Assembly: GCF_051623805.1 (NCBI RefSeq)
Contig: NZ_CP130700.1
Span: forward strand, 2,658,047 to 2,682,046
Source of the DNA: Marinomonas sp. PE14-40
Lineage (GTDB): Bacteria; Pseudomonadota; Gammaproteobacteria; Pseudomonadales; Marinomonadaceae
DNA: 24,000 nt
Reading direction: 5' to 3'
The notes below the pieces were generated by a model. The model was not told the origin of the DNA and did no database searches. It saw nothing but the letters and a program-made list of their open reading frames with translations. The first letter of the stretch is position 1. Every line of letters starts with the position of its first letter. The position numbers and the translations under genes are program-made. This document shows, piece after piece, positions 5,211-23,436 of this stretch.

Positions 5211-5286
5211 GTCCTCATAGGTAAACAGGATATACCTGCCGCCTCCTAAGCGGCTATTCCAGGTTCGAGTCCTGGTGAGGACACCA
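5211..5286 (+). tRNA. tRNA-Arg (anticodon CCT)
   Basis: A 76-nt cloverleaf folded by hand. Acceptor stem GTCCTCA/TGAGGAC; D arm GGTA-AACAGGATA-TACC; anticodon arm GCCGC-CTCCTAA-GCGGC (anticodon CCT); 4-nt variable loop; T arm CCAGG-TTCGAGT-CCTGG; discriminator A; encoded CCA. Confidence 0.9.
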
Positions 5287-10739: not shown

Positions 10740-11564
10740 CTACCCTTCAAATAATTCTGCTAATTTTGCCCCAGGTTCGTTAGCCTTCATAAAGGCTTCC
10801 CCGACCAAAAAGGCATTAATATCTTTTTCTCTCATTGCCGCCACATCATCACTAGTGTGGATTCCACTTTCAGTCACAATAAAGCGATCTGCAGGAATGT
10901 AAGGCAATAATTCAAAAGTATTCTCTAAGCTCAATTCAAACGTATGTAAATCACGGTTGTTAATACCCAACAACTCAGTTTCAGTAAATTCTAAAGCAAG
11001 GTCTAACTCAGCTTTATTGTGTACTTCAACCAATACGTCCATACCTAATTCACGAGCTAGTTGGTCAAGCGCTCTCAGCTTTTCACCAGACAAACAAGCA
11101 GCAATTAAAAGAATGCAATCGGCACCAATCGCTCTTGCTTCATAAACCTGATATTCATCCACAATAAAATCTTTGCGAATCACAGGTAAGGAGCAGGCAT
11201 TTCTAGCTTCTTCCAAATAGTCCTCATGGCCTTGGAAAAAATCTCTATCGGTTAAAACAGACAGGCAAGCTGCCCCACCTTTCTCATAAGACTTAGCAAT
11301 TTCGGCCGGAACAAAAATCTCTCTCAACACACCTTTACTCGGTGATGCCTTTTTTATCTCAGCAATAACGCCTGAATCACCTTGAGCAACTTTCGCTTTT
11401 AAAGAAGCAGCAAAACCACGAACACGATTATGTGAATTCGCTGCAGTGACAGCCACTTTTAATTTATCTAAGGGTGTATGATTTTTTCGCTCAGCAATTT
11501 CTTCATACTTTCTAGCAACAATTTTCTTTAATATTGTTGGCGTTTCAATTTGCATATTAACCAC
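10740..11564 (-). CDS. trpC: Indole-3-glycerol-phosphate synthase
   Basis: 274 aa with canonical motifs [29 protein letters not shown] and LVEVH. It lies downstream of trpD. Confidence 0.9.
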
Positions 11565-11576
11565 AATTCCTAAAAT

Positions 11577-12611
11577 TTAGTTATCTAGATAGCATTGTGT
11601 AAATGCTGCTAGTTCAGTTAGTTTCACTCGCGCTAAGCCACCGCCAATAACATCTTCTGCGATAGCAACACCTTCAGCTAGATCATCTGCAATACCCGCT
11701 ACATAAATAGCAGCACCGGCATTTAGAGCGACAATATCACGAGCAGGATTAACCACACCTTTACCTTCTAATGCGCTTTGCACCAACTCTAAACTCTCAT
11801 CAACATTCTCAGCTTGTAAAGGCATGATAGATTGAGTTTCAATATTAAAATCTTCTGGCTGAATACTGTATTCACGAATTTCATTGTCTTTAAGTTCAGC
11901 AACAAAAGTCGGTGCAGCTAAACTAATCTCATCTAGCCCATCTTGAGAGTGAACAACCATCACATGCTCACTGCCTAAACGCTGAAGTACTTCGGCCATA
12001 GGACGAACCCACTTTTTATCAAACACGCCCATGACTTGGCGTTTAGTGCCAGCAGGGTTTGTTAGTGGTCCAAGTAAGTTAAAAATGGTGCGAACAGCCA
12101 TTTCCTTACGAGGTACTATAGCGTGCTTCATTGCAGAGTGGTGATTAGGCGCGAACATAAAGCCTAAACCCACTTCTTCAACACAGGTTTTCACCTGCTC
12201 AGCAGACAATGCTAGGTTTACACCAGCCTTTTCCAATAAGTCAGCACTACCTGATTTTGATGACACTGAACGGTTACCATGTTTGGCAACCTTGCCACCA
12301 GCTGCCGCCACAACAAAAGACGATGCTGTAGAGACATTAAACAACTTGCCACCATCTCCACCCGTACCACAGGTATCGATAATATTATCAATATTTGACA
12401 ATTCGACTTTAGAAGACAACTCACGCATCACACTTGCAGCAGCGGCAATTTCAGCAACTGTCTCACCTTTCATGCGAAGGCCGACTAGAAAGCCACCAAT
12501 TTGTGACGGTGTCGCTTCTCCAGTCATAATTGCATGCATGACTTCATGCATTTCTTCTGCACTTAAATGCTGCTGTTCGATGACAGTGGCAATGGCGCTT
12601 TGGATATCCAT
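11577..12611 (-). CDS. trpD: Anthranilate phosphoribosyltransferase
   Basis: 344 aa with motifs DTCGTGGDG, FNVSTASSFV, KHGNRSVSSKSGSAD and NLLGPLTNPA. Confidence 0.95.
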   Translation of the reverse strand: MDIQSAIATVIEQQHLSAEEMHEVMHAIMTGEATPSQIGGFLVGLRMKGETVAEIAAAASVMRELSSKVELSNIDNIIDTCGTGGDGGKLFNVSTASSFVVAAAGGKVAKHGNRSVSSKSGSADLLEKAGVNLALSAEQVKTCVEEVGLGFMFAPNHHSAMKHAIVPRKEMAVRTIFNLLGPLTNPAGTKRQVMGVFDKKWVRPMAEVLQRLGSEHVMVVHSQDGLDEISLAAPTFVAELKDNEIREYSIQPEDFNIETQSIMPLQAENVDESLELVQSALEGKGVVNPARDIVALNAGAAIYVAGIADDLAEGVAIAEDVIGGGLARVKLTELAAFTQCYLDN

Positions 12612-12619
12612 TATGTCTC

Positions 12620-13198
12620 CTATCGCTTTAAAAAATTAGCAAGCAGATCATGTCCTGCTTCCGTTAATATTGATTCTGGATGAAATTGCACCCCTTCAAT
12701 CGGAAGGGTTTTATGTTTGAGTCCCATTATTTCATCTAACTCGCCCGTACATCCTTCAGTCCATGCCGTTACTTCTAAACACGCAGGCAATGAGGCTTGC
12801 TCTACCACCAATGAGTGGTAACGAGTAACAAGTTGAGGATTAGGTAACGATTGGAACAATGACGAATCCGTGTGATGTACCGATGATGTTTTTCCATGCA
12901 TTACTTGTTTGGCACGAACCACTTTACCACCAAACACCTGCCCAATACTCTGATGCCCTAAACAAATACCTAAAATAGGTATTTTTCCAGCAAAATACTC
13001 AATCGCAGCCAATGACACACCCGCTTCATTCGGTGTACAAGGTCCGGGAGAAATAACTAAATGGGAGGGGTTCAGTGCTTCAATTTTCTCTAGGGTAATT
13101 TCATCATTACGATAGACTTCTACCTCAGCACCTAGTTCCCTAAAGTATTGTACTAGGTTATATGTAAAGGAGTCGTAATTATCGATCATTAATAACAT
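12620..13198 (-). CDS. trpG: Anthranilate synthase component II / aminodeoxychorismate synthase glutamine amidotransferase
   Basis: 192 aa class-I glutamine amidotransferase: [19 protein letters not shown], catalytic GICLGHQ and FHPES. It is first in the trpG-trpD-trpC run. Confidence 0.9.
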
Positions 13199-13558: not shown

Positions 13559-14299
13559 CTATTTTAGCAGCGGAGCGAGTTTACCCGCTTGCTCACTGGC
13601 TTGAGTACTTGCTTGGCTGTAACTTGAAGATTGCATCGGCGGGGAAGTTGTCCCTGCACCACCTGGATCACTCCATGAATACGAATGGTTATGAGAGCTT
13701 GCCACATTCGCAAGGTCAGCCACGGTATTCATTAAATCATGCAGCAGACGATAGATATTCGTCGACTCATCTCCCACATGATGCTTGGTCGCAATAATTT
13801 CACGTAGTTTGCCAATTTGCTCGGTTAAGTCATCCTCTATGGTGAGCTTGCTACTTTTGCCTTTCACTTCCCATTCATTATCTTGATTAACTTGAATATA
13901 CGCCTGCTCAGACTGCTGCCACCTTTGATCTGTCTCCGCCATATTAGGCAGTTTCAAACCATGGGGGAAAACAGAGCGTACAAAAGGATGGGCGGGGGAG
14001 CCATACATAAAGGCAATTTCAACCAAGGTACCAAGACTTGGCTTTGACCAGAAACCTCTCTGTTCTCCACCTGCATTCACAGGTAAAAGCACATCTTCCA
14101 GAATCGGCAACTCAGTGTCTTCCTCACCATTTACATCTAAAAGCTGTACTGAAACAGAATAAACAGGAGCTTCTTCTGTCACAACCTCACCTGCCAAAGG
14201 GGTTAAAATATCCGTTACTTTCGCCCACATAGGCAAATGCCAACCTGAGGCTAACTCAGGATATTTCTTTTGCATTAATCGCGTTAAGGCTTTTTCCAT
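13559..14299 (-). CDS. Baseplate central spike protein (gpV / Mu gp45-like)
   Basis: 246 aa. The N-terminal part looks like an OB-fold spike (WAKVTDIL...YSVSVQLLD...LPILEDVLLPVNAGGEQRGFWSKPSLGTLVEIAF). The C-terminal HNHSYSWSDPGGAGTTSPP fits the H-x-H...GG..T..P apex motif of phage spikes. The call is made from motif memory, not a search. Confidence 0.55.
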   Translation of the reverse strand: MEKALTRLMQKKYPELASGWHLPMWAKVTDILTPLAGEVVTEEAPVYSVSVQLLDVNGEEDTELPILEDVLLPVNAGGEQRGFWSKPSLGTLVEIAFMYGSPAHPFVRSVFPHGLKLPNMAETDQRWQQSEQAYIQVNQDNEWEVKGKSSKLTIEDDLTEQIGKLREIIATKHHVGDESTNIYRLLHDLMNTVADLANVASSHNHSYSWSDPGGAGTTSPPMQSSSYSQASTQASEQAGKLAPLLK

Positions 14300-14970
14300 G
14301 ACACCACCATTTTTGCTTCCTGCAATCTCACGCTATAAAGACGATTCCCATTAAGCAGGTAACCCGGCCTTAAACCCGGAATCGCCATTAATTCAGCGCT
14401 TTGAGTTGATAACTGTTTATCCAGTACAGCTGTTGGCACCTCTACGGGAGCATCGATCCAATGACTATCAGACCAAGCACCAATATAAATAAGACCATCT
14501 CGCTTTTGCTGCCAAGTAAAATCCTCTATGCCAAATACTTGGGCGATTTTATTTAGCAGATGAAAGCCAGAACCCGTATTAACAAAATAAGGCACAGGGG
14601 TAGAAGCATAACTGGACTGAGGTAAGCTAAAGCCACAACCCGTTATCGCTTTCACCTCTGTCAGTAAATCCTTGAGTGTTTTATTGCGTAATGCCAAAGG
14701 CACACGCATGCTCAACACATTAGACTTTTCTCGACAAAATAGGGTTTGAGACTGATTTGAAGCAGGCGTCGAGCGCTCAATATAACCATAAAAATGGCCA
14801 TGCTCTTGTCCGTTATTAATCCCAAAACTGAAATAGACAGACCCTGTTAAGGCTTTCTCAGACTGCACCACAAAGGATGCACGGCCAGCGGCCATCGCAT
14901 CCAATGCAACATCATGAGAAACCAAATTCACTCGCTTGCCATTAACCTTGAGCACAAAGTTATATTTCAT
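14284..14970 (-). CDS. Putative baseplate hub protein (gp27/gpD/VgrG-N-like, short)
   Basis: The pattern KYNFVLKVNGKRV...ASFVV...HFYGYIERST...LFCREKSNVL...LALRNKTLKDLLTEV resembles the N-terminal region of hub/gpD-like proteins. The preferred start is the ATG at 14970, preceded by AAGGA; the track start is 14985. Confidence 0.4.
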   Translation of the reverse strand: MKYNFVLKVNGKRVNLVSHDVALDAMAAGRASFVVQSEKALTGSVYFSFGINNGQEHGHFYGYIERSTPASNQSQTLFCREKSNVLSMRVPLALRNKTLKDLLTEVKAITGCGFSLPQSSYASTPVPYFVNTGSGFHLLNKIAQVFGIEDFTWQQKRDGLIYIGAWSDSHWIDAPVEVPTAVLDKQLSTQSAELMAIPGLRPGYLLNGNRLYSVRLQEAKMVVSWKKP

Positions 14971-15508
14971 TCCTTGTCCCCTCATCGGCTAGGGCAGAAT
15001 CCAAGTACTTGAGCACATTCTCCAGCCAATTACTGGTTTCGCTGTTCTCAGCTTCTGAGGCAACACTGGTATCCGCTGTCGCCATCTTAGGCTCATTTTG
15101 CGTAAGCTTCATGGCTTCCACTTTTTCAGGGATAGAGAGGTGTTCGACCAAGACAAAAGACACAGACCAGGCTTGATCATCATCCAGCTCTTGCGCCGAC
15201 ACCTTGTCGCTAAAGCGTACTTGTCGAACAGAAAAAGCTCTCGCCGTTTGGTTTTCTATGTTGTAAACCAAACGGGTACCTTTATCTTCATCCAAGGCCG
15301 TACTTAAACTCACAATATTGGCAAGCTCAGACGCATCGTCATATTTCACCTTCATCGCCACACGAAGACGTTTAGGCTTAAATCCCTTCTCAGCCGTAGC
15401 CGAAGAAGAGCTTTGACCAGACAAGTCCTCCTCTGGCAAAGCTAATTCACACGTCACCTTCACCCCATAGCCTGAGATTTTAGTATCGTTGAGAATAAGG
15501 GTAATCAT
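14960..15508 (-). CDS. Phage tail/baseplate-associated protein of unknown function
   Basis: 182 aa. Its start is coupled to the upstream gene stop by an ATGA overlap. It has an acidic C-terminal tail. Only the context (between the fibre chaperone and the hub) supports a structural role. Confidence 0.3.
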   Translation of the reverse strand: MITLILNDTKISGYGVKVTCELALPEEDLSGQSSSSATAEKGFKPKRLRVAMKVKYDDASELANIVSLSTALDEDKGTRLVYNIENQTARAFSVRQVRFSDKVSAQELDDDQAWSVSFVLVEHLSIPEKVEAMKLTQNEPKMATADTSVASEAENSETSNWLENVLKYLDSALADEGTRNEI

Positions 15509-16017
15509 GGGGTTTCATCCATACTAGCGACAACTTCAACCTCATCATTCAAAGCTGCAGGCCAAGGGTTTTGAGCTTGAATACTCGCACGCTCCTCCAC
15601 GGCCAGATCCATCAAACGAGCATATTCATCACTCTCACCAAGGTGAGCTTTAATCTCTGCCTCTTCAAGAAGCTGGCGCACTCTAGCGGTATAAGCCGCT
15701 TGTCTTGCATCATCAACAGCTTGATAAGCATCTTGGTAATCATCTTCAGCATTTCGAACACGCCAAACATCATTATCTTTAACCAAAGTATCGTTGAAGT
15801 GGCATTCTAACGCCTGCCAGTTTTTATTCGACACAATATGCTTTCTGCTGTATTCATCAATAAAGAAAGACGTCCTTTCTTCTATTGTCATATCAAGGCA
15901 CTTCACACCATCAAAACGTAGTTTAGTAATATCAACAGAACTTTCCAATTCAATATTATGGGTTTGAACTTGAGTGGTACGGCCTATAACTAGGTCATTA
16001 TTTAAAATTGCAAACAT
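15505..16017 (-). CDS. Putative tail fibre assembly chaperone (Tfa-like)
   Basis: 170 aa. Its start overlaps the stop of the 308-aa fibre gene (TAATG). The C-terminal helical region ending ...IQAQNPWPAAL recalls the L..W..Y...L...WP..P ending of Tfa/gpG-type chaperones. Confidence 0.4.
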   Translation of the reverse strand: MFAILNNDLVIGRTTQVQTHNIELESSVDITKLRFDGVKCLDMTIEERTSFFIDEYSRKHIVSNKNWQALECHFNDTLVKDNDVWRVRNAEDDYQDAYQAVDDARQAAYTARVRQLLEEAEIKAHLGESDEYARLMDLAVEERASIQAQNPWPAALNDEVEVVASMDETP

Positions 16018-16943
16018 TAGACAATCTCCGCTTTGATGTATGAAACAAAATCAATATGAGTCCAATGCCATTGGCAGTTAAAATAAACATTGCCAGATTC
16101 ATTAGTAGAGCTAAGAACTGCTGTTCGTTTTTCTCGCTTCATAATGGCGCCCTTCTCAGCTACGTTCGCTGTTTTATATTGGTAACCCCCACTATCCTTT
16201 CCAACATGAAAGCGCTCAGAAGAGTATAAAAGCTCTTCATCCAAACTAAGTATTGCGTATCCATGTCCAACACTTGTAGACGAATTAAGAAATTGTGTTT
16301 TAACACGAATATTAACTCTTCGAGCAAAACCGTGATCTATTTCTAAAGACATCAAATCTTGTGTGCCGCTAATCAAATAAGAATCCATAGTCTCAATAGC
16401 TGCAAATTCTCCTTTAGGAATATCAGATACGTTTTTATAAACTTTCAAAACACCACTTTTAAATTCAGCAAGAAGTAGATCGTCATAACTTGTATCAAAG
16501 GCGGTTTCAAAGTCTTCCAATGAATCAGGGTTATATTCAACATCCGACAAATCTTTAAGATAAAAACCATCTGTTAGATTAAATCGCAAATGGTAAGTTT
16601 TGGTATCATTGATCGAAAAGGTGCGGACTGCATAATCAGAAGTATTGATTTCTAACCAGCCATAAAGCCTGATGATTTGATTCGCTTCGATAGTTAACAC
16701 CGAGCTGTCTAACGTCATTGCTAACCTGCTATCATCTGACATAACTTCAGGGTAAATAGGCAGTTTTTTAACTTGCTCAAAGGTGTCGGTTTTAACATAT
16801 TGGGTGTGGGCATCTGCTTCAGATAAATGATCTGAAATGGCCTGCTCAGCATCTTGGCGCACAGTTTCAAATGACTCTTTAGCCAGGGTCATATCCGCAG
16901 TCGCATCACCTAATGCATTAATGGCATCGAGTATTTCACTCAT
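16017..16943 (-). CDS. Receptor-binding tail fibre protein 3 (shared N-terminal adaptor motif, unique C-terminus)
   Basis: 308 aa. The N-terminus MSEILDAINALGDATADMTLAKESFETVRQD aligns without gaps to the N-termini of the 296-aa and 284-aa proteins. SEADAHTQYV resembles the H-x-x-x-x-(D/N)-(P/A)-H fibre motif. It is followed by a chaperone-like gene. Confidence 0.5.
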   Translation of the reverse strand: MSEILDAINALGDATADMTLAKESFETVRQDAEQAISDHLSEADAHTQYVKTDTFEQVKKLPIYPEVMSDDSRLAMTLDSSVLTIEANQIIRLYGWLEINTSDYAVRTFSINDTKTYHLRFNLTDGFYLKDLSDVEYNPDSLEDFETAFDTSYDDLLLAEFKSGVLKVYKNVSDIPKGEFAAIETMDSYLISGTQDLMSLEIDHGFARRVNIRVKTQFLNSSTSVGHGYAILSLDEELLYSSERFHVGKDSGGYQYKTANVAEKGAIMKREKRTAVLSSTNESGNVYFNCQWHWTHIDFVSYIKAEIV

Positions 16944-16964
16944 AATAATTCATCCTTGAATTAA

Positions 16965-16986
16965 CCTAGGCTTAAAGAAGCCTAGG
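16965..16986. other. Perfect 9-bp stem-loop in the gap between fibre genes
   Basis: CCTAGGCTT-AAAG-AAGCCTAGG. On the plus strand it is followed by TTTGTTTATT (terminator-like). On the minus (coding) strand it is followed by TTAATTC (weaker). Confidence 0.5.
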
Positions 16987-17012
16987 TTTGTTTATTAGCT
17001 ACTTATAAAATT

Positions 17013-17903
17013 TTATAAACGAGTTTTTCCGTAATACGCGATAGAACGAGGTCGAGTCTCATATCCACCATCAGAGCCTGATTCAGAAGAACCTTGTGCA
17101 GTACCTCCCCCCCAATACATCTGATAATTATGAGCTCCACCTACATCGTTATAGGCATGCAATGTGTGTGAATGAGATTCGAACTCATCTTCTTGCCAGC
17201 TTCCAAAGACACGATCAGTATCAACACCGCGCCCATCATCAAACATACGGATAAATTCACCACCGACTATGGGCAAGGTAAAGGTGGTCGAACCATCCCC
17301 TTCACCCCAAAAACCACCATAGGTAATAGGGTCAGCATCTTTGGTGGCTTGATCAATGAGGTTTGAGGTGTTTTTGATTTTGGCCCAAGCAATCGCGAAC
17401 TCAGCTCGATTAAGCTCTGCACCATTTAATGCCACCTCCCCTATGCTAAGCAGATCCGTGGTATCGGTAACTAGCTTGCCAATATCTGCAACAGCATTAC
17501 CTGTCTTAGCGTTAATCTGTTCAATCACATAAAAAGCAGTGCCGTCATAACGCACTTTGACTAAAGCCTCCGCAAAGAGCTGACTAGCAGCGGTCACATT
17601 AACAATACTTTTTGCCCCTTGAGCATTCACATCAAGTGATACCAAGGCCTCATCATTTGTATTTGATATGATGAGGCTTATTTCATCACCCGCTGCTAAA
17701 TCAGAAACAATGGCCGTTGACGTCACAGTCAATGTATTTTTACCAAGCGCTTGTGCATAACGTTCCAAGTTACGTAGCGTTTGAATCGACTCAGCTAAGG
17801 CGCCTTGATAGCCATCATAGATGGATTCAAATACTTCTTTTGCTTGTACTAGCTCTTCTGTTGCATCCTTCATTGCCACTAAAGAGTATGTAAAATCACT
17901 CAT
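17013..17903 (-). CDS. Receptor-binding tail fibre protein 2 with C-terminal phage Tail-Collar domain
   Basis: 296 aa. It has the shared N-terminal motif MSDFTYSLVAMKDATEELVQAKEVFESI. The C-terminal TFTLPIVGGEFIRMFDDGRGVDTDRVFGSWQEDEFESHSH...GYETRPRSIAYY matches the Tail-Collar domain pattern (LPDLRGxFxR...GRG.D..R..GS.Q.D....H...ETRP.N). Confidence 0.7.
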   Translation of the reverse strand: MSDFTYSLVAMKDATEELVQAKEVFESIYDGYQGALAESIQTLRNLERYAQALGKNTLTVTSTAIVSDLAAGDEISLIISNTNDEALVSLDVNAQGAKSIVNVTAASQLFAEALVKVRYDGTAFYVIEQINAKTGNAVADIGKLVTDTTDLLSIGEVALNGAELNRAEFAIAWAKIKNTSNLIDQATKDADPITYGGFWGEGDGSTTFTLPIVGGEFIRMFDDGRGVDTDRVFGSWQEDEFESHSHTLHAYNDVGGAHNYQMYWGGGTAQGSSESGSDGGYETRPRSIAYYGKTRL

Positions 17904-17950
17904 TTTTAAATTCCTTTTAACTTTCAGCTTTCAACTTTTTTAAGCTGTAT

Positions 17951-18220
17951 TTATAACTCGTTATCAGTTAGCGGATATCTCGCTTTTATTTCTGCAACCT
18001 TGTTACGCCATGTTTGCTCAGCTTCTGGTGTATGATCGAACTGCCATTCCATATAGAGAAGGTCTGATTCTGATTTATAAGCGGCGAACCTAAAAGCCTT
18101 CTGTTTTTCATTAAAACCTATAAGAAGAGCATTATTATTAATTCCAGTTTTATTTAAATCTTCCTCCAGCCAGCCTATAAACTGTTTTCCACCAACATTC
18201 ACATTTATTTTTCCTGTCAT
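17951..18220 (-). CDS. Small hypothetical protein following fibre gene 1 (possible chaperone/accessory)
   Basis: The track ORF begins with GTG at 18229, directly abutting the upstream stop. An ATG at 18220, preceded by TAGGTGAT, is the likelier start (MTGKINVNVGGKQF...). No recognisable motif was found. Confidence 0.4.
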   Translation of the reverse strand: MTGKINVNVGGKQFIGWLEEDLNKTGINNNALLIGFNEKQKAFRFAAYKSESDLLYMEWQFDHTPEAEQTWRNKVAEIKARYPLTDNEL

Positions 18221-18229
18221 AAAAATCAC

Positions 18230-19084
18230 CTATATTGATAGTAAATATGCACCACTTCCAGGAATTTGTAGTGGCTTTAAGTCACTGGAAAACAAGCTTG
18301 TTTCTGCATCTAAAACACACGAATAGGTATTCAAAATAACAAAACAAGATAAATTTCCATCTATTAAAGAGAAGTTATTTTGTATAGATTCTGACGTATT
18401 TAGCTTTGTCATACCGACAAAACTGAAGGTTGAGCCAATTTTGTGATCACCAGTATGATAAGCGGCCTTAACAATCGATTTTAAACTAGGTGAATCATTA
18501 AAAATATTAACTGGATAATAGCCACCGAACTGGACACTCCCTCCATAGCCATAAACTAATGAGTCATTAGTTCGTGAAGATTCAATGTAAATGTTAAAAT
18601 CATACGGATTAGCAAATTTTATAGAGCCACCGCTCCTCACAATAAAGCCACCACCATCAAATACTTTTAAACCATTACCAGCACCATCATTTGAAAATAA
18701 AATAATATTTTTTGATGTAGCCTCAAGGCCAGTATCAACTGGATATAATAAAGGGCCCCCATTATCATCCGTAATGAGCATTAACTTTATTGCTCCCAAA
18801 GCACCTTCAGGTATCAAATTAAATGCCTTATCAAGTGTTTTAAGTGGGCTTGATGAACTTAAACCTGAATTTAAATCGTCTCCGTTATGCGATACATAAA
18901 GCGTCACGTCCATCACAGAGCTAATTACCTCATTTACATCTTGAGATAGCTGGCTTACGAAATTAGCCAATTCAGTCGCAGATGAGTCAACATCTGCTCG
19001 AATATCTTCAAAAAGCTCTTTCGCTTCCTTCATTTCAGACGCAGCTAGCGTTAACGCTGCTGTCGCTGTGCTTAGTTCACTCAT
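18230..19084 (-). CDS. Receptor-binding protein 1, tailspike-like (possible parallel beta-helix)
   Basis: 284 aa. It has the shared N-terminal motif MSELSTATAALTLAASEMKEAKELFEDIRAD. Then LYVSHNGDDLNSGLSSSSPLKTLDKAF matches the yVs..G.D.n.G....P.kTl..A entry motif of pectate-lyase-fold beta-helix proteins. Gly/Asn-rich repeats follow. Its start overlaps the stop of the 190-aa gene (ATGA). Confidence 0.5.
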   Translation of the reverse strand: MSELSTATAALTLAASEMKEAKELFEDIRADVDSSATELANFVSQLSQDVNEVISSVMDVTLYVSHNGDDLNSGLSSSSPLKTLDKAFNLIPEGALGAIKLMLITDDNGGPLLYPVDTGLEATSKNIILFSNDGAGNGLKVFDGGGFIVRSGGSIKFANPYDFNIYIESSRTNDSLVYGYGGSVQFGGYYPVNIFNDSPSLKSIVKAAYHTGDHKIGSTFSFVGMTKLNTSESIQNNFSLIDGNLSCFVILNTYSCVLDAETSLFSSDLKPLQIPGSGAYLLSI

Positions 19085-19653
19085 AGCTTCCCTTCCAAGG
19101 TTAATAATCTTTCATGATTTTTAATGGCGCTTGATAAAGCGGATATGGTCGCTGCGCTGTTTTGCATTATGCTGGTTTGCATAGCGAGCATTTCTGCTTC
19201 GTAATCAAACTGCCAAGATTCCAGTGGCAGATCTGCACCCGTCAACTGCTTCGCATTGCTAAAGGGCACGACTAAATTGCGGTTAATCACCTGCCCTATA
19301 TCTTTTCGCTTCTTATTCAGCGGAATATAGGAATAGGCTAATAACTCACCTGAGTCAGTGACTATGCCGTAATAATTGAAGTCATAATCACCCACACTAC
19401 TGTCTAGTACCAGTGAGTAAGTCACCGCATTGTCATCGTTATAATGAGGGTCTTGAACAAGGATATTGCCACCCACTAAATAACTATTATCTGGAATACC
19501 AGCCGCAGCATCTGCTGGTGTGGTTTCATCCACACCTGGTACATTAGCCAAGATAAAGTGGGTGACCACCACAGGTTCTAAACTCGCGGCTTTTTGGGCA
19601 ATGTAGCGTGCCCCTGCATCTGTTACTGTTCCACTTACTATATCTGTCATCAT
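19081..19653 (-). CDS. Short tail fibre proximal (collar/baseplate-attachment) protein, DUF3751-like
   Basis: 190 aa. The N-terminus GTVTDAGARYIAQKAASLEPVVVTHFILANVPG resembles the tail-collar fibre N-terminal domain of P2 gpH-type fibres. It ends in a helical segment (EAEMLAMQTSIMQNSAATISALSSAIKNHERLLTLEGKL) with no distal domain. Confidence 0.55.
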   Translation of the reverse strand: MMTDIVSGTVTDAGARYIAQKAASLEPVVVTHFILANVPGVDETTPADAAAGIPDNSYLVGGNILVQDPHYNDDNAVTYSLVLDSSVGDYDFNYYGIVTDSGELLAYSYIPLNKKRKDIGQVINRNLVVPFSNAKQLTGADLPLESWQFDYEAEMLAMQTSIMQNSAATISALSSAIKNHERLLTLEGKL

Positions 19654-19659
19654 TCGTCC

Positions 19660-20289
19660 TTAAATTGCATTTATCCTATCTTCGCTTCGTTCAATAAAGT
19701 GCTGAGCGATACTTGCCTTAGCAGGCTCTGTCGTATCAGCAAATACATATTCCGTTCGTCCACTTATTTGCTCTACCCCTCTATCAATACCAAAGCTAAA
19801 TCCCTCTACGGCTATGGATTCAATAGCATCCACCATCAAAAATTCATAACGGCGACAGGTTCGGCCATATTGGCGGATAATGTGATGAGCAAGCTCTGGA
19901 TTTTGGGTCAAGCTAGAGTCAGCCAACCAAAGAGTAATGACATCCCAGTCACTTTCACTGTCTCTTTCAATTTGTCCATATAAAGGCACATCAAAGCGAG
20001 CAAGAACCTCTTTAAAGCCTCCTTTACTGCCCGCATCTATGGCATTTTTCACCCCGTGTTTTACACGTTTACGAAAGAGCTCATCTGGTTCATCAGCAAA
20101 TCGGTCAATATCATTTTGATACGCCAAAAGCTTAAGCACATACACATGGCAGGTCTCGGCATCGAGCTGATTGAGTGGCGTCTTTATCCAGTCTTCCGTT
20201 TTATCCCAAAAGGTCACAAAAGCATCCGCTAGCTTGTTAATTTCTTTGCCTTCTCGAATCCATACAGGCAATTCAAATTTAGCAACCAT
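19660..20289 (-). CDS. Baseplate wedge protein, P2 gpI-like
   Basis: 209 aa, directly after the gpJ-like gene. LKLLAYQNDIDRFADEPDELFRKRVKHGVKNAIDAGSKGGFKEVL resembles the gpI pattern (L.wLAw...vd.W....e..KR..i..a...hr.KGT). Confidence 0.5.
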   Translation of the reverse strand: MVAKFELPVWIREGKEINKLADAFVTFWDKTEDWIKTPLNQLDAETCHVYVLKLLAYQNDIDRFADEPDELFRKRVKHGVKNAIDAGSKGGFKEVLARFDVPLYGQIERDSESDWDVITLWLADSSLTQNPELAHHIIRQYGRTCRRYEFLMVDAIESIAVEGFSFGIDRGVEQISGRTEYVFADTTEPAKASIAQHFIERSEDRINAI

Positions 20290-20291
20290 AA

Positions 20292-21485
20292 CTAACCCTC
20301 TTGCACACTGAGTGAGGCCAAACGTGGGATTTCAAGTTCAGCGCTTATGTGGCTTCCAATCACTTCTTCCCCATCAGTAATGGCCTTAAAATCAATACTT
20401 TCTATCTCAGGGAAGTTTTGATAAACCTCACTGGCTAAGCGAGTAAAAGAAAATCGTGAATAAGGCTGAGTTTGAGTCATTACATAAGCCGAATTTGACC
20501 TAAAAGCCGCTTCAATCGCCTGCTCAATACCAGTCAAACTAGCTGCCTTTTCTTCCGCCGTTAATGCCACAGGAAAGTAAACAGTGACACCAAGGTCTAC
20601 TAACAAATCAGGTACTTTCTTAACCTCTAAATCATCACCATGACCGTGATAGCCTTCATCTCTTATCATGCGATTAATAATCTCTAGATAACTGTCAGCA
20701 GGTGCATCAAGTTCGAACAAAACATAAGCGTCAGCCGCTCCTGGTACCACGCTAGTTCCACCTCTTTTCACACCATGTTCAAACCAAATCATGTCAGTGG
20801 AAACACCAGCAAACTTCGCAATCAAATGTCGATATACCCCATCCGTGTGATAATGACTTAAGGAGTTAAAAGCATTACGAATGCGTAAGCGATATGCTTC
20901 AATATCTTCATCATCATCTCCTACCACTTGAATCCAACTATCAGGGTTCGTCACAGTGACACCTTGGATATCACAGTTCACATACTGGCCAGTTTCCAAG
21001 TTATACGCCTTGCCTTCTGCTACAGCGCGAACTGGCACACTAATCGAGTTATCATCTTTACCCAGCACGATTGGATAAGTTGTTTCCAGTTCATAAACAA
21101 TGTCATTCAAGGGCTCGGTACGAATCCGTGTACCAAGCGGAATCTCAATATCTCCCTCTTGTCCTGCTCGAGTAAATTGCAACCGACCCTCTAGCCGTTG
21201 AGCTTTTTTTCGCTCCACCCCATAATTGTTACCCCACAGGTCAATAAAACCCTCTCCAACTGTCTTTAAAAAAAATTGTGGCATCACAGTTTGAACCAAA
21301 GCATTCACTAGCCAGATCACAGGCTGAATCGCGACCGCTGAGATCAAGCGCCAAAAAGGGCTATAGGCAGAATCATTACTGATTTTAGAGCCAGAGTCGG
21401 TCACGGTTTGCTTAAACGCCGCCTTAATCTCAGCTTCGGTAATGGGTACACCTTCATCCTTTAATAGGCTTTCAAATTCCTTCAT
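20292..21485 (-). CDS. Baseplate J / gp47 family protein
   Basis: 397 aa. Size, position (after the gpW-like gene, before the gpI-like gene) and general sequence character match baseplate J-like proteins. Its start overlaps the upstream stop (ATGA-type coupling). Confidence 0.65.
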   Translation of the reverse strand: MKEFESLLKDEGVPITEAEIKAAFKQTVTDSGSKISNDSAYSPFWRLISAVAIQPVIWLVNALVQTVMPQFFLKTVGEGFIDLWGNNYGVERKKAQRLEGRLQFTRAGQEGDIEIPLGTRIRTEPLNDIVYELETTYPIVLGKDDNSISVPVRAVAEGKAYNLETGQYVNCDIQGVTVTNPDSWIQVVGDDDEDIEAYRLRIRNAFNSLSHYHTDGVYRHLIAKFAGVSTDMIWFEHGVKRGGTSVVPGAADAYVLFELDAPADSYLEIINRMIRDEGYHGHGDDLEVKKVPDLLVDLGVTVYFPVALTAEEKAASLTGIEQAIEAAFRSNSAYVMTQTQPYSRFSFTRLASEVYQNFPEIESIDFKAITDGEEVIGSHISAELEIPRLASLSVQEG

Positions 21486-21793
21486 AGGGTTACCTCTATC
21501 GCTTCGTTATTTAACGTACGTGCACTACAGTTAAGTGCTTCCCCTATTAACGCCACCTTGGCCGTCCCTGGGTAAATACGTGTATCGTTTTCCATTTCAA
21601 TTTCTACCTGAGTGGTGAGAGTGGCCAGTTTTACCTGGCTTCTCTCACCTATCATGCTAAAGGCATAACCTTTTTCTCTAAGCATGTGTCTTAGGTCTTG
21701 TGCTATACAAACTGCCTCTGCCCTAAGCTCAGGTTCTCCCAATAGGTTTAGTACCAAGTCATCATCTATGATGCTTAAATCTATGCTGTCCAT
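21482..21793 (-). CDS. Small baseplate protein (gpW/gp25-like, DUF2590-like)
   Basis: 103 aa. IDLSIIDDDLVLNLLGEPELRAEAVCIAQDLRHMLREKG fits the DL....GDL......G.P......I.QD..H pattern of small baseplate wedge proteins. It lies between the tape measure and the J-like gene. Confidence 0.45.
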   Translation of the reverse strand: MDSIDLSIIDDDLVLNLLGEPELRAEAVCIAQDLRHMLREKGYAFSMIGERSQVKLATLTTQVEIEMENDTRIYPGTAKVALIGEALNCSARTLNNEAIEVTL

Positions 21794-23436
21794 TAGCCCA
21801 CCTGCATTTCCATTTCATGGGCCAATTCATCACCACGTACCCCTTGGCCATAATTATTCACTTCAATTTTTTCCACATGGCTTTGCTTACTGGTACTGGC
21901 AAATAGGTTGCTGAAAGATTGAAATAAGCCGCCTTGCTCACCCGTCTGAGATGACTCTGCCCCTGGTAAGGTTAGGTTTGCACCTTGTGCCATACCTTGC
22001 TCGGCAACTTTTTGTGACAAGCCCTGATTTGCTTGTATATCAGGGCTAGCATCCACACCCGGTAACCAACTGAACTTATTTTTAATCCAGTCAGCCGACT
22101 CTCCGATAAAGCCAAAAGGATTCAAACTAGTAAGCCAATTTTTTAGCTCACTCCAAGCACCTTTGATGGTTTCTATAAAGGCAAAATCAAAACTCATGTC
22201 AGGCATCAGAGATAACTCACCCAGCCAGACTTGAAACTCTCCCCACCATTGCGGAATTCGATCAAATACGCCTATCAAAAGATCAACGATTTCAATCACG
22301 GCATAGAGAGGAAAGAAGGCTAATTTAAGCCATTCATTGTCACTAAATAGCCCTTTAATAAAGCTAAAACCTTGGCTTAACGCAGAGAAAACCCAATCCG
22401 TAAAACGCCCTATGGCAGCACTCACCTCATCCCAGTAAACCACCATGGCGACTAGCGCAGCGATCAAGGCTGTGATACCCACCACAATCCAAGTAATCGG
22501 ATTCGCCAATAAAGCAGCGGTAAAACTCCAAATAGCCGGCAAGCTTGTGAGTACACCGGCTTTTAGAGAGGTAAATAACCCCATCAACAAAGGCCCAGTC
22601 GCCACCATTGCTTTCATAGCACCATTAAGAATCCAAACACCGGCGGCTTGTAATTTAAGCAGAGGCGTAATAACCAGATTCTTGACTAACCAATTTTGCG
22701 ACAGCGTTATGGCATGGCTTTTAGCTAAATTGAGCATTTCCTGAGCGACCCCCACCATATTAATCACTTCCATCATGGAGCCCAATGCCTGCTCTGCTGT
22801 ATTTACCCCTTGCGCAAGACTTGGATACTTGTCAGCCCAGCCATCAAGGCTTTTCCCCATGGCTTTTACCTCATCAATATAAGGACTTAACATGGGAGAA
22901 AGCTGTGTCATCAAGTTGCCAGAAAGCGCCTGAACTTTAGTATCCAATGCTGGCCAAAGCGCCAGTTGCTCATTCAAGCCTTGCTTCAATGTAGAAAAAG
23001 AATCCGTGTAAGCCGAGATATTCGATTCTCCGAATACACGGCCCATAATATTGTCACCACTTAAGGTTTTAAGGCTGGCAACCTGCCCTTTAATCTGCCC
23101 TAAACTGTCATGTAAAATCTGTAGTTTGGAGCTTGATTCGCCCGCGATATCAACAGAAGCAATAACCGAATTTGTTGTCACACCGCTGGAGAGATCGACT
23201 TGACCGGCAGCATTTTTTGTCGCATCAGACACGCCCATGCTAGTTATCAAGTTCTGTACTTCTAGCGTTAAGGTATCTAAACCTGCGGTTAGGCTTAAAA
23301 CCGCTTGATAAGGTGCCTCAAAGACAGTTTGCATTTGCTTCACTAACACTTGAATCCCGTTTTGAACTCCCTCAAGAGAGCTCGGAAACTGATTTAGCTT
23401 GCCAAGGCTTAGCTGTAATTTTTCAAGAGCTTCCAT
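21793..23436 (-). CDS. Tail tape measure protein
   Basis: 547 aa. It has a long helical N-terminal region and a central block of hydrophobic helices (…VITPLLKLQAAGVWILNGAMKAMVATGPLLMGLF…ITWIVVGITALIAALVAMVVYW…). It lies immediately downstream of the chaperone/frameshift pair. Confidence 0.8.
   Translation of the reverse strand: MEALEKLQLSLGKLNQFPSSLEGVQNGIQVLVKQMQTVFEAPYQAVLSLTAGLDTLTLEVQNLITSMGVSDATKNAAGQVDLSSGVTTNSVIASVDIAGESSSKLQILHDSLGQIKGQVASLKTLSGDNIMGRVFGESNISAYTDSFSTLKQGLNEQLALWPALDTKVQALSGNLMTQLSPMLSPYIDEVKAMGKSLDGWADKYPSLAQGVNTAEQALGSMMEVINMVGVAQEMLNLAKSHAITLSQNWLVKNLVITPLLKLQAAGVWILNGAMKAMVATGPLLMGLFTSLKAGVLTSLPAIWSFTAALLANPITWIVVGITALIAALVAMVVYWDEVSAAIGRFTDWVFSALSQGFSFIKGLFSDNEWLKLAFFPLYAVIEIVDLLIGVFDRIPQWWGEFQVWLGELSLMPDMSFDFAFIETIKGAWSELKNWLTSLNPFGFIGESADWIKNKFSWLPGVDASPDIQANQGLSQKVAEQGMAQGANLTLPGAESSQTGEQGGLFQSFSNLFASTSKQSHVEKIEVNNYGQGVRGDELAHEMEMQVG

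Follow-up and report, generated by a model that had tools for sequence, protein, structure and literature searches.

In the Pseudoalteromonas phage ACA1 (GenBank OR438928), the N-terminal, baseplate-binding part of the tail fibre and the antireceptor are separate polypeptides (PMC10612066, section 3.13), annotated as 'tail fiber hub attachment subunit' (gp41) and 'antireceptor' (gp42). In two podophages of Klebsiella, KP32 and K11, a conserved N-terminal peptide of about 35 amino acids (aa) docks the second receptor-binding protein (RBP2) on the T4gp10-like domain of the first, RBP1 (PMC13579863). Here we analyze a locus that resembles both systems. It lies in a stretch of 24,000 nucleotides (nt) from Marinomonas sp. 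PE14-40, hereafter the window, where a short fibre subunit, the anchor, is followed by three genes for tips (RBP1 to RBP3) that share an N-terminal segment. Two of the proteins encoded in the window match NCBI entries of this strain at 100% identity. Sequence comparison supports the view that this segment behaves as an anchor-specific adaptor of a split fibre.

As in the window, the gpJ and gpI genes of ACA1 are followed by a short open reading frame (ORF) with the PF12571 domain only, a distal RBP ORF with an overlapping start, and homologues of HP1 orf33/34/35. The ACA1 anchor, at 191 aa compared to 190 aa here, shows 28% identity, and the lectin-type body of the ACA1 antireceptor is the tip 1 body type of the sister Marinomonas loci. 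ACA1 differs in that it is a complete phage with one tip, which is varied by a diversity-generating retroelement, whereas the Marinomonas locus has three tips of three folds, no reverse transcriptase and, judging by the sister loci, no head. The anchor tail and adaptor of ACA1 are also of another type, and a hidden Markov model (HMM) of the Marinomonas motif has no match to the ACA1 adaptor. The original prediction for this DNA described the anchor as a truncated fibre stub; it is instead a conserved dedicated subunit, and such a subunit had already been described in ACA1 (PMC10612066).

The likeness to KP32 and K11 is that a short N-terminal peptide is the sole common part of unrelated RBPs and that it marks the exchange boundary. 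In the Klebsiella phages, this peptide is the docking element, whereas here we infer docking from comparison. Those phages further differ in their podovirus tail, in the T4gp10-like branching domain carried by a full RBP and in the use of the peptide by the secondary RBP only; in the Marinomonas locus, there is a tip-less dedicated anchor with a helical tail, and all tips carry the peptide. Because its anchor has no T4gp10-like/XD domain, the system is not a member of the anchor-branch family, although it would work like that family.

The shared adaptor and its anchor

The tip proteins of 284, 296 and 308 aa align without gaps over their first 31 residues, with a pairwise identity of 11-15/31 and with M1, S2, A10, A14, A21, K22, E23, F25 and E26 invariant, and the similarity is gone by about residue 36. 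The sum-of-pairs BLOSUM62 score of this alignment is 157, against a mean of -32 (standard deviation 19) for shuffles that preserve the composition of each peptide; none of 20,000 shuffles reached the observed score (z = 9.7), and neither did any of 20,000 random window triplets from the same three proteins. From residue 41 on, the bodies show no mutual similarity (best BLASTP E = 0.76). The motif and its invariant positions are exactly those of the original prediction, which was also right about the unrelatedness of the bodies and about the sizes and positions of the ORFs, all on the minus strand. The gene start common to all three tips, ATGAGTGA, is present as well, though trivial, because all three proteins begin M-S-E/D.

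A generic coiled-coil bias as the source of the similarity was rejected given the shuffling results and the rarity of profile matches. In an exhaustive HMMER search of 1.84 billion representative proteins, a 43-position profile of the motif yielded 11 matches at E <= 1e-3, of which three were low-complexity artefacts and only eight were genuine; in the latter, the motif occupies residues 1-43 of proteins of 72-331 aa with at least seven different bodies. The exhaustive search was needed, as a word-indexed search for homologues of the 43-residue motif profile had no matches. A local HMM, iterated for five rounds, stayed at 21 matches in nine loci, all confined to the Marinomonas-type clade (anchor at least 74% identical), and did not reach the ACA1-type and Vibrio-type adaptors. 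The ACA1-like and Vibrio-like split fibres have N-terminal helix types of their own and, because the HMM does not extend to them, the homology of the adaptor types is positional rather than demonstrated by sequence. Within the Marinomonas locus, a single heptad register is common to the three adaptors, in which hydrophobic or small residues account for 90-100% at positions 4, 7, 11, 14, 18, 21, 25, 28, 32 and 35. Of the invariant residues, A14, A21 and F25 fall on the a/d seam of this register, and K22, E23 and E26 fall off the seam.

The 190-aa fibre anchor subunit (19081-19653, minus strand) consists of a PF12571 domain and a helical tail. PF12571 is the phage tail-collar fibre N-terminal domain, the baseplate-attachment part of fibres of the P2 gpH and HP1 orf31 type. 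It covers residues 8-154 of the anchor (E = 3e-21; 76.3 bits against the Pfam cut-off of 23), and the PHROG tail fibre families match the anchor with their first ~160-180 positions only. The C-terminal residues 152-190 (nt 19084-19200) form a proline-free heptad helix tail of 39 residues; beyond PF12571 and this helix, no domain of the anchor was found in Pfam, PHROG or NCBIfam. The attachment domain is thus a separate short ORF located directly after the gpI homologue Tail_P2_I, and the tip is the next ORF, with an overlapping start and a helical N-terminus that is missing from unsplit homologues. The anchor stop overlaps the start of tip 1 as ATGA, an overlap (d = -3) that recurs in all Marinomonas-type loci and in ACA1. 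We rejected the possibility that the anchor is a truncated pseudogene stub because its ORF is uninterrupted, shows 74-94% conservation and translational coupling in all relatives, and evolves under purifying selection; the 190-aa protein is a conserved dedicated anchor subunit, not a relic.

Among HP1-like elements, fibres divided into an anchor and a tip are widespread. Of 80 related loci retrieved from IMG/VR by a profile scan, about 40 encode a short anchor of 178-268 aa with a separate tip after it, the remainder having unsplit fibres of 480-870 aa. The Vibrio-type split fibres (L002, 7004-8855; L035/L042/L074) have anchors of 250-268 aa with heptad-like tails of 100-118 residues, compared to 31-44 residues in the ACA1-type and Marinomonas-type anchor tails, so that the length of the non-covalent joint would differ about three-fold between lineages.

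The evidence that couples the adaptor to the anchor tail comes from comparison of split and unsplit fibres and from covariation among the split ones. The unsplit fibre of locus L029 (514 aa) corresponds to the ACA1 anchor plus antireceptor minus about 33 residues at the anchor C-terminus and about 62 residues at the tip N-terminus. Because L029 is devoid of these helices, they are extra parts that exist only in split fibres, and such parts are what a non-covalent joint would require. Furthermore, a lectin-type antireceptor body with the formylglycine-generating enzyme (FGE)-sulfatase fold, 60-68% identical between occurrences, is found with an ACA1-type, an L015-type or a Marinomonas-type adaptor, each of the three beside an anchor tail of its own type. 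In a set of 33 non-redundant split loci, the identity of the adaptor correlates with that of the anchor tail once anchor-core identity is regressed out (partial r = 0.76, permutation p = 5e-4), and the correlation of adaptor identity with body identity is weaker (0.54). Hence, in these comparisons, the motif appears to follow the anchor tail and not the tip body.

The substitution patterns are consistent with this coupling. In the single-tip loci L008/L010, the proportion of non-synonymous differences (pN) is 0.22/0.41 in the anchor tail and 0.37/0.45 in the adaptor, as opposed to 0.09/0.11 in the anchor core, which suggests that tail and adaptor diverge together while the core stays constant. 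In the three-tip clade, the ratio of non-synonymous to synonymous substitution rates (dN/dS) is 0-0.05 for the anchor tail and 0.03-0.13 for adaptors 2 and 3, with a proportion of synonymous differences (pS) of 0.18-0.66, so that the anchor tail and the adaptors are under strong purifying selection. Because synonymous divergence of the adaptors is high (pS 0.18-0.88) and non-synonymous divergence is low, selection appears to act on the peptide, not on the DNA. The proposal of a split fibre with an adaptor motif therefore gained support from the covariation, the co-divergence, the dN/dS values of 0-0.13 and the existence of unsplit PF12571 fusions.

Three motif-bearing tips in the same order are found in six distinct loci, namely the window, MED121, SBI8L/SBI22, L006, L098 and L007, which combine different tips; in all six, the three tip genes have ribosome-binding sites and intact ORFs. 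Three diverged loci (L008 = L100, L009 = L102, and L010) encode one tip and one small chaperone, with HP1_ORF34 directly after them, and no two-tip locus was seen among the Marinomonas-type loci. None of the other fetched loci (~75) contains a co-oriented ORF pair with a shared N-terminus. The adaptor of the single-tip loci is closest to the slot 3 type, and slots 1 and 2 therefore look derived. The anchor tail is 39 residues long in single-tip and three-tip loci alike; given that no docking element was added with the extra tips, the three tips would have to share one site.

Tips, chaperones and cassette exchange

Tip 1 (18230-19084, minus strand, 284 aa; adaptor residues 1-36, nt 18977-19084) has a nearly orphan body, the sole homologue of which (P0023, 59% identity) carries a Vibrio-type N-terminal adaptor. 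The AlphaFold2 (AF2) model of tip 1, built from a two-sequence alignment, has a predicted local distance difference test score (pLDDT) of 36 and gave no fold assignment. The beta-helix originally proposed for this tip stayed unconfirmed, with weak hints only: a cap-like YVSxNGxDxNSG motif and a match at E = 0.006 to the start of the lacto-N-biosidase LnbX. The GTG of a 92-aa ORF (17951-18229, minus strand), a candidate small fibre-assembly chaperone for tip 1 (PHROG 5714/2432, E = 1e-16 to 1e-17), stands immediately after the tip 1 stop. The start of this ORF is uncertain (GTG at 18229 or ATG at 18220) because there is an in-frame ATG 9 nt downstream and the homologues begin MNTYIFNGQ...; its C-terminus is conserved (...YKxESDxLYMEWQFD...KVAEIKARYPL). 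The same chaperone family also occurs after the first tip in L006-L010 and after the unsplit fibre in L029. In several sister loci, tip 1 is an antireceptor with the FGE-sulfatase/C-type-lectin fold (L006, 8594-9817; L007, 2211-3416; L008, 1970-3196; L098, 14841-16067). In ACA1 and VHML, a diversity-generating retroelement targets this lectin-fold antireceptor; the Marinomonas version has the local adaptor and is followed only by a chaperone of ~90 aa, without a reverse transcriptase.

Tip 2 (17013-17903, minus strand, 296 aa; adaptor residues 1-36, nt 17796-17903) combines a conserved shaft with a tail-collar-type C-terminal domain that has a variable tip, and no dedicated chaperone gene follows it. 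The C-terminal half matches PHROG tail collar fibre families (E = 1e-24 to 1e-15), and residues 168-263 match the long tail fibre 8kec_A of the Protein Data Bank (E = 1e-6), with a GDGSTTFxLP...GGxFxR signature, in agreement with the fold that had been assigned to this tip. Tip 3 (16017-16943, minus strand, 308 aa; adaptor residues 1-36, nt 16836-16943), the fold of which had been given as unknown, models as stacked jelly-roll domains of the tumour necrosis factor (TNF)/C1q-like lectin type. After its adaptor come a DAHTQY connector, an 'LPIYPE' module and the stacked jelly-roll head domains. The AF2 model consists of stacked beta-sandwiches with a mean pLDDT of 78.6 (about 90 for residues 60-308), and its best Foldseek matches are the RBP of lactococcal phage 1358 (4l92), the TNF-like lectins BC2L-C/PLTL and viral tail fibre/C1q-like proteins. 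Homologues of the tip 3 body (P0011, P0012 and P0014) are unsplit fibres with an N-terminal PF12571. The candidate chaperone for tip 3 is a Tfa-like tail-fibre-assembly protein of 170 aa (15505-16017, minus strand; PHROG 3916, E = 6e-8) with a variable N-terminal half and a conserved C-terminal half.

The spacer between tips 2 and 3 contains a perfect 11-bp stem-loop (16963-16988) that lies just upstream of the ribosome-binding site of tip 3. Four loci have its core, ACCTAGG...CCTAGGT, in conserved form, and it sits in an unusually conserved junction that starts with the final 15 codons of tip 2 and takes in the spacer and the start of tip 3. An intrinsic terminator was rejected because the coding strand has no T-run; the stem-loop could be an element of RNA processing or stability, or a modulator of translation.

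Alignment across strains places breakpoints at the 3' edge of the motif-coding segment, in line with one of the two alternatives in the original prediction. In the comparison with SBI8L, nucleotide homology covers the baseplate genes and the anchor and ends 77 nt into tip 1. It returns 16 nt before the ATG of tip 2 and ends at about codon 239 of that gene. A further homologous stretch begins ~19 codons before the end of tip 2, spans the spacer and reaches ~144 codons into tip 3, after which homology is lost until about codon 71 of the gene for the 170-aa chaperone. In the assembled loci, slot 1 holds at least four body types (284, 328, 401-408 [lectin] and 293 aa), and two short contigs have further motif-bearing tips with bodies of 258 and 265 aa. 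A 328-aa body with its 128-aa chaperone occupies slot 1 in MED121 and SBI8L and the last slot in L094/P0027, where it has a slot-3-type adaptor. In the latter case, the cassette is preceded by a non-coding spacer with a slot-3-type ribosome-binding site and followed by ORF34, and the crossover lies just past a 15-nt identity island at the AKESFE codons; slots 1 and 3 of MED121 share a 15-nt island at these codons. Because both the breakpoint between strains and the crossover of the slot swap fall at the motif edge, the adaptor boundary is the exchange point, and it is exactly there that a tip body, together with its chaperone, is swapped from strain to strain and from slot to slot.

The docking model and its alternatives

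We consider it probable, on the evidence of the comparisons above, that the anchor binds the baseplate, that its helical tail pairs with any of the three tip adaptors, and that the particles show up to three specificities. Under this model, the anchor, presumably a trimer, would bind the gpI/gpJ baseplate wedge via PF12571, and its amphipathic 39-residue tail would pack with the 36-residue tip adaptor in a non-covalent helical bundle that would replace the covalent link of unsplit fibres. The comparative evidence points to such a helix-helix joint between the anchor tail and the adaptor. The three tips would use the same docking surface because their adaptors are of one family and the anchor tail is not extended relative to that of the single-tip relatives. 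The particles made by one cell could then display up to three specificities, those of the tip with the collar domain, of the lectin-like jelly-roll tip and of a tip with a third fold. The arrangement we favour has one tip trimer for each anchor trimer and would result in mosaic particles, and the adaptor/body junction would double as the swap point for bodies and chaperones, between strains and slots. Docking, the trimeric state, expression of all three tips and the stoichiometry are the parts of the model that we infer.

Several observations weigh against this model. The AF2 monomer models give low confidence to the adaptor helix, and the anchor has no sequence match to any solved structure. 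The covariation of the anchor tail with adaptor 1 might partly reflect the physical adjacency of the two in the DNA, a caveat that does not apply to adaptors 2 and 3 because these are 1.2 and 2.1 kb away. However, the strongest argument for the model, namely that tips 2 and 3 have kept the adaptor without being adjacent to the anchor, would also be expected from tandem duplication combined with self-trimerisation. Finally, the window stops at the tail chaperone, so that the headless state of the element is deduced from the sister loci, which are 86-93% identical.

A branched arrangement, in which each chain of the anchor trimer holds a different tip trimer, to give 18 tip trimers over six positions per particle, strikes us as unlikely. 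There are as many tips as a trimeric anchor has chains, loci with two tips were not seen, the three adaptor paralogues are conserved between strains each in its own right, and the TP901-1 baseplate, with three BppL trimers on one BppU trimer, offers a precedent. Moreover, multi-specific phages usually mount all their RBPs at each vertex, as in KP32/K11 (PMC13579863) and Ackermannviridae (PMC11414711). Against this, the anchor tail measures 39 residues whether a locus has one tip or three, without an extra docking element, there is no branching domain like that of T4 gp10, and a plain heptad helix is more simply accounted for by a coaxial trimer. If the branched arrangement were nevertheless true, the particle would be a tri-specific contractile tailocin with 18 re-pluggable tips held by helix-helix contacts of 36-39 residues, with the smallest known natural branching joint for RBPs and the first in a P2/HP1-type tail. 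It is less probable still that the common N-terminal segment serves solely in trimerisation or folding, as a helix inherited when one tip gene was duplicated in tandem, such that tip 1 alone joins the anchor and tips 2 and 3 either attach elsewhere or are unassembled spare cassettes. The motif is indeed a regular heptad coiled coil, the single-tip relatives indicate that the clade began with one tip, and the RBP2 and RBP3 genes, unlike that of the translationally coupled tip 1, are not adjacent to the anchor gene. A trimerisation helix need not track the anchor tail, yet the adaptor type switches with the tail type while the body stays the same; nor does such a helix fit with invariant surface residues (K22, E23 and E26) outside the hydrophobic seam or with purifying selection on adaptors 2 and 3 as strong as that on the anchor. 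Unused spare cassettes would be expected to decay, whereas ribosome-binding sites and intact ORFs persist in six loci.

We regard it as very improbable that the 5' segments serve mainly as recombination handles at the DNA level, or that the tips are alternatives selected by rearrangement as in the Mu G segment or carotovoricin. In favour of a handle are the mosaic breakpoints at the motif boundary, the occurrence of the same body-plus-chaperone cassette in slot 1 (MED121) and slot 3 (L094), and the 15-nt island at the AKESFE codons between slots 1 and 3 of MED121. However, the adaptors combine high pS (0.18-0.88) with low non-synonymous divergence, and the three 5' segments of the window have in common only ATGAGTGA and runs of 5-6 nt, the identity islands among the 5' segments of one locus reaching no more than 8-15 nt. 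An inversion or shufflon mechanism was rejected: the module contains no inverted repeats longer than 24 nt (75% complementary), no long direct repeats and no invertase or recombinase, and all of its genes, including those of the three tips, are co-oriented. The flanking inverted repeats with an invertase that characterize the Mu G segment, the P1 C segment and carotovoricin were, accordingly, not found in the module. Of the proposed recombination handle, then, the breakpoints at the 3' motif edge and the cassette move from slot 1 to slot 3 hold, whereas the short islands (8-15 nt) and selection at the protein level speak against it as a purpose; the handle is best regarded as a side effect of functional constraint on the peptide and not as the reason why the peptide exists.

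To re-target tailocins and P2-like phages, foreign receptor-binding domains are fused to the N-terminus of the fibre, which is laborious because the fusion point has to be sought for each construct. In the docking model, the interface is apparently reduced to a tip helix of 36 residues and a stand-alone anchor helix of 39 residues, which at least eight unrelated tip bodies would already use, with three slots on one particle type. If docking occurs as proposed, the pair would provide a compact plug-and-play adaptor for the engineering of multi-specific contractile particles, and the locus would be a clear natural example of tip-plus-chaperone cassettes shuffled between strains and slots. It would also be a tractable system to ask whether a contractile tail fires with a subset of its fibres engaged, which bears on how many bound fibres trigger contraction.

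The carrier element among known systems

The fibre genes belong to a contractile-tail module of the HP1 type, with the gene order PF10963 chaperone, tape measure, DUF2590, Baseplate_J, Tail_P2_I, anchor, tips, HP1_ORF34 and split HP1 orf35. The window stops at the PF10963 tail assembly chaperone, which is followed by the tape-measure protein (21793-23436, 547 aa, no Pfam match). Next come, on the minus strand and upstream of the fibre genes, the gpW-like baseplate protein DUF2590 (21482-21793), Baseplate_J (20292-21485) and, directly before the anchor, Tail_P2_I (19660-20289). Downstream of the fibre genes, also on the minus strand, are HP1_ORF34 (14960-15508), a 233-aa homologue of the N-terminal half of HP1 orf35 (14284-14985) and a 246-aa gpV-like spike with a gpV-type oligonucleotide/oligosaccharide-binding (OB) domain that corresponds to the C-terminal half (13559-14299). 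The HP1 orf35/PHROG 2258 baseplate protein, 544 aa when fused, thus consists here of two overlapping ORFs (13559-14985); the same split is seen in ACA1 (gp48/gp49) and in the Vibrio cyclitrophicus element, and this split of the spike-complex protein is recurrent in marine HP1-like tails. The tape measure has only 547 aa, whereas that of the Vibrio element has 774 aa and that of ACA1 has 1164 aa, from which a distinctly short tail is predicted.

The element ends at 13559, and trpG begins 360 nt further on (12620-13198), followed by trpD (11577-12611) and trpC (10740-11564). R-type tailocin clusters of Pseudomonas aeruginosa and P. syringae likewise adjoin trpG, between trpE and trpG. The same trpG-trpD-trpC junction is present in SBI8L (L004, 16528-19345), whereas the MED121 flank is a LysR gene and the far side of L086 is a response regulator, not trpE. 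Two further features of the window are unrelated to the fibre finding: co-oriented neighbours at 414-1267 with similar N-termini, read as the flagellar rod proteins FlgB/FlgC from their sequence pattern, and a tRNA-Arg(CCT) gene at 5211-5286.

The sister loci are 86-93% identical to the window across the shared tail and baseplate segments. The sister elements additionally hold an opposite-strand S24-peptidase repressor, a 181-aa ORF, a replication protein of the P2 gpA type, Ogr/Delta, gpR, a sheath of the HP1 type (DUF2586), a tube protein (HP1_Orf24), Amidase_2 and a holin. Between Ogr and gpR, all of them have genes for an esterase/lipase (COesterase), a DUF4262 protein and an opposite-strand, all-helical coiled-coil protein of 595-599 aa (L086, 4697-8067; L097, 3047-6414); these three non-tail genes may represent cargo or morons. 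The sister loci L086, L097, L098 and L099 lack capsid, portal and terminase genes throughout the stretch between the repressor and the spike. By synteny with these strains, the PE14-40 element looks like a headless, R-type tailocin-like element, controlled by an SOS repressor and equipped with its own lysis genes. The window itself has the genes from the tail chaperone to the spike, and the sister loci complete the contractile tail and baseplate set with gpR, the sheath and the tube and add the lysis cassette and the regulator; the label tailocin-like is used because the sister elements are headless and have a regulator and a lysis cassette. The tailocin setting proposed at the outset is supported by sister loci without head genes, although, given the retention of the gpA replication gene, 'defective prophage' is an equally valid label.

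An R-type bacteriocin is known from the same genus: MEDPRO2 of Marinomonas mediterranea is a mitomycin-inducible, headless contractile particle that is active on other Marinomonas (PMC10870725). Its cluster of about 13 kb has the P2 order of V, J, a tail protein, two hypothetical proteins, sheath, tube, tape measure and D (PMC10870725). The present element, in contrast, follows the HP1 order, in which the sheath and the tube come at the start and the orf34/35 spike comes at the end, and it also has gpA, Ogr and an S24 repressor, and the two are not the same element.

Clusters of R-type tailocins with several tail fibre genes have been reported from Pseudomonas and Kosakonia (PMC10598620). They are like the present locus in having more than one fibre-plus-chaperone set, in the broader killing proposed for them and in the recombination of tips and chaperones. 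To our knowledge, each fibre gene in these clusters encodes a full baseplate-binding N-terminal domain of its own, whereas here there is a single anchor gene for three anchor-less tips.

The K1-5 and SP6 phages have an adaptor plus two tailspikes, and in the TP901-1 baseplate, one BppU trimer holds three BppL trimers. The latter is like the branched alternative considered above in having one anchor-trimer chain per RBP trimer, and differs in being a siphovirus structure with identical tips that are held by globular BppU C-terminal domains rather than by a helix. Branched tailspike complexes are formed in Ackermannviridae, as exemplified by TSP1-4 of CBA120 (PMC11414711). In these phages, as in K1-5/SP6, several RBPs of different specificity are mounted on conserved N-terminal modules, which is the likeness to the Marinomonas locus; they use large XD/T4 gp10-like domains or a two-faced adaptor protein, in contrast to the 36-residue helix on a P2/HP1-type fibre found here. 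In the literature searched, the combination of a tip-less PF12571 anchor, three tips, a 36-residue helix, a headless P2/HP1 element and shuffling between slots is undescribed. Compared to ACA1, from which the split fibre itself is already known, what is new is the presence of three tips on one anchor type.

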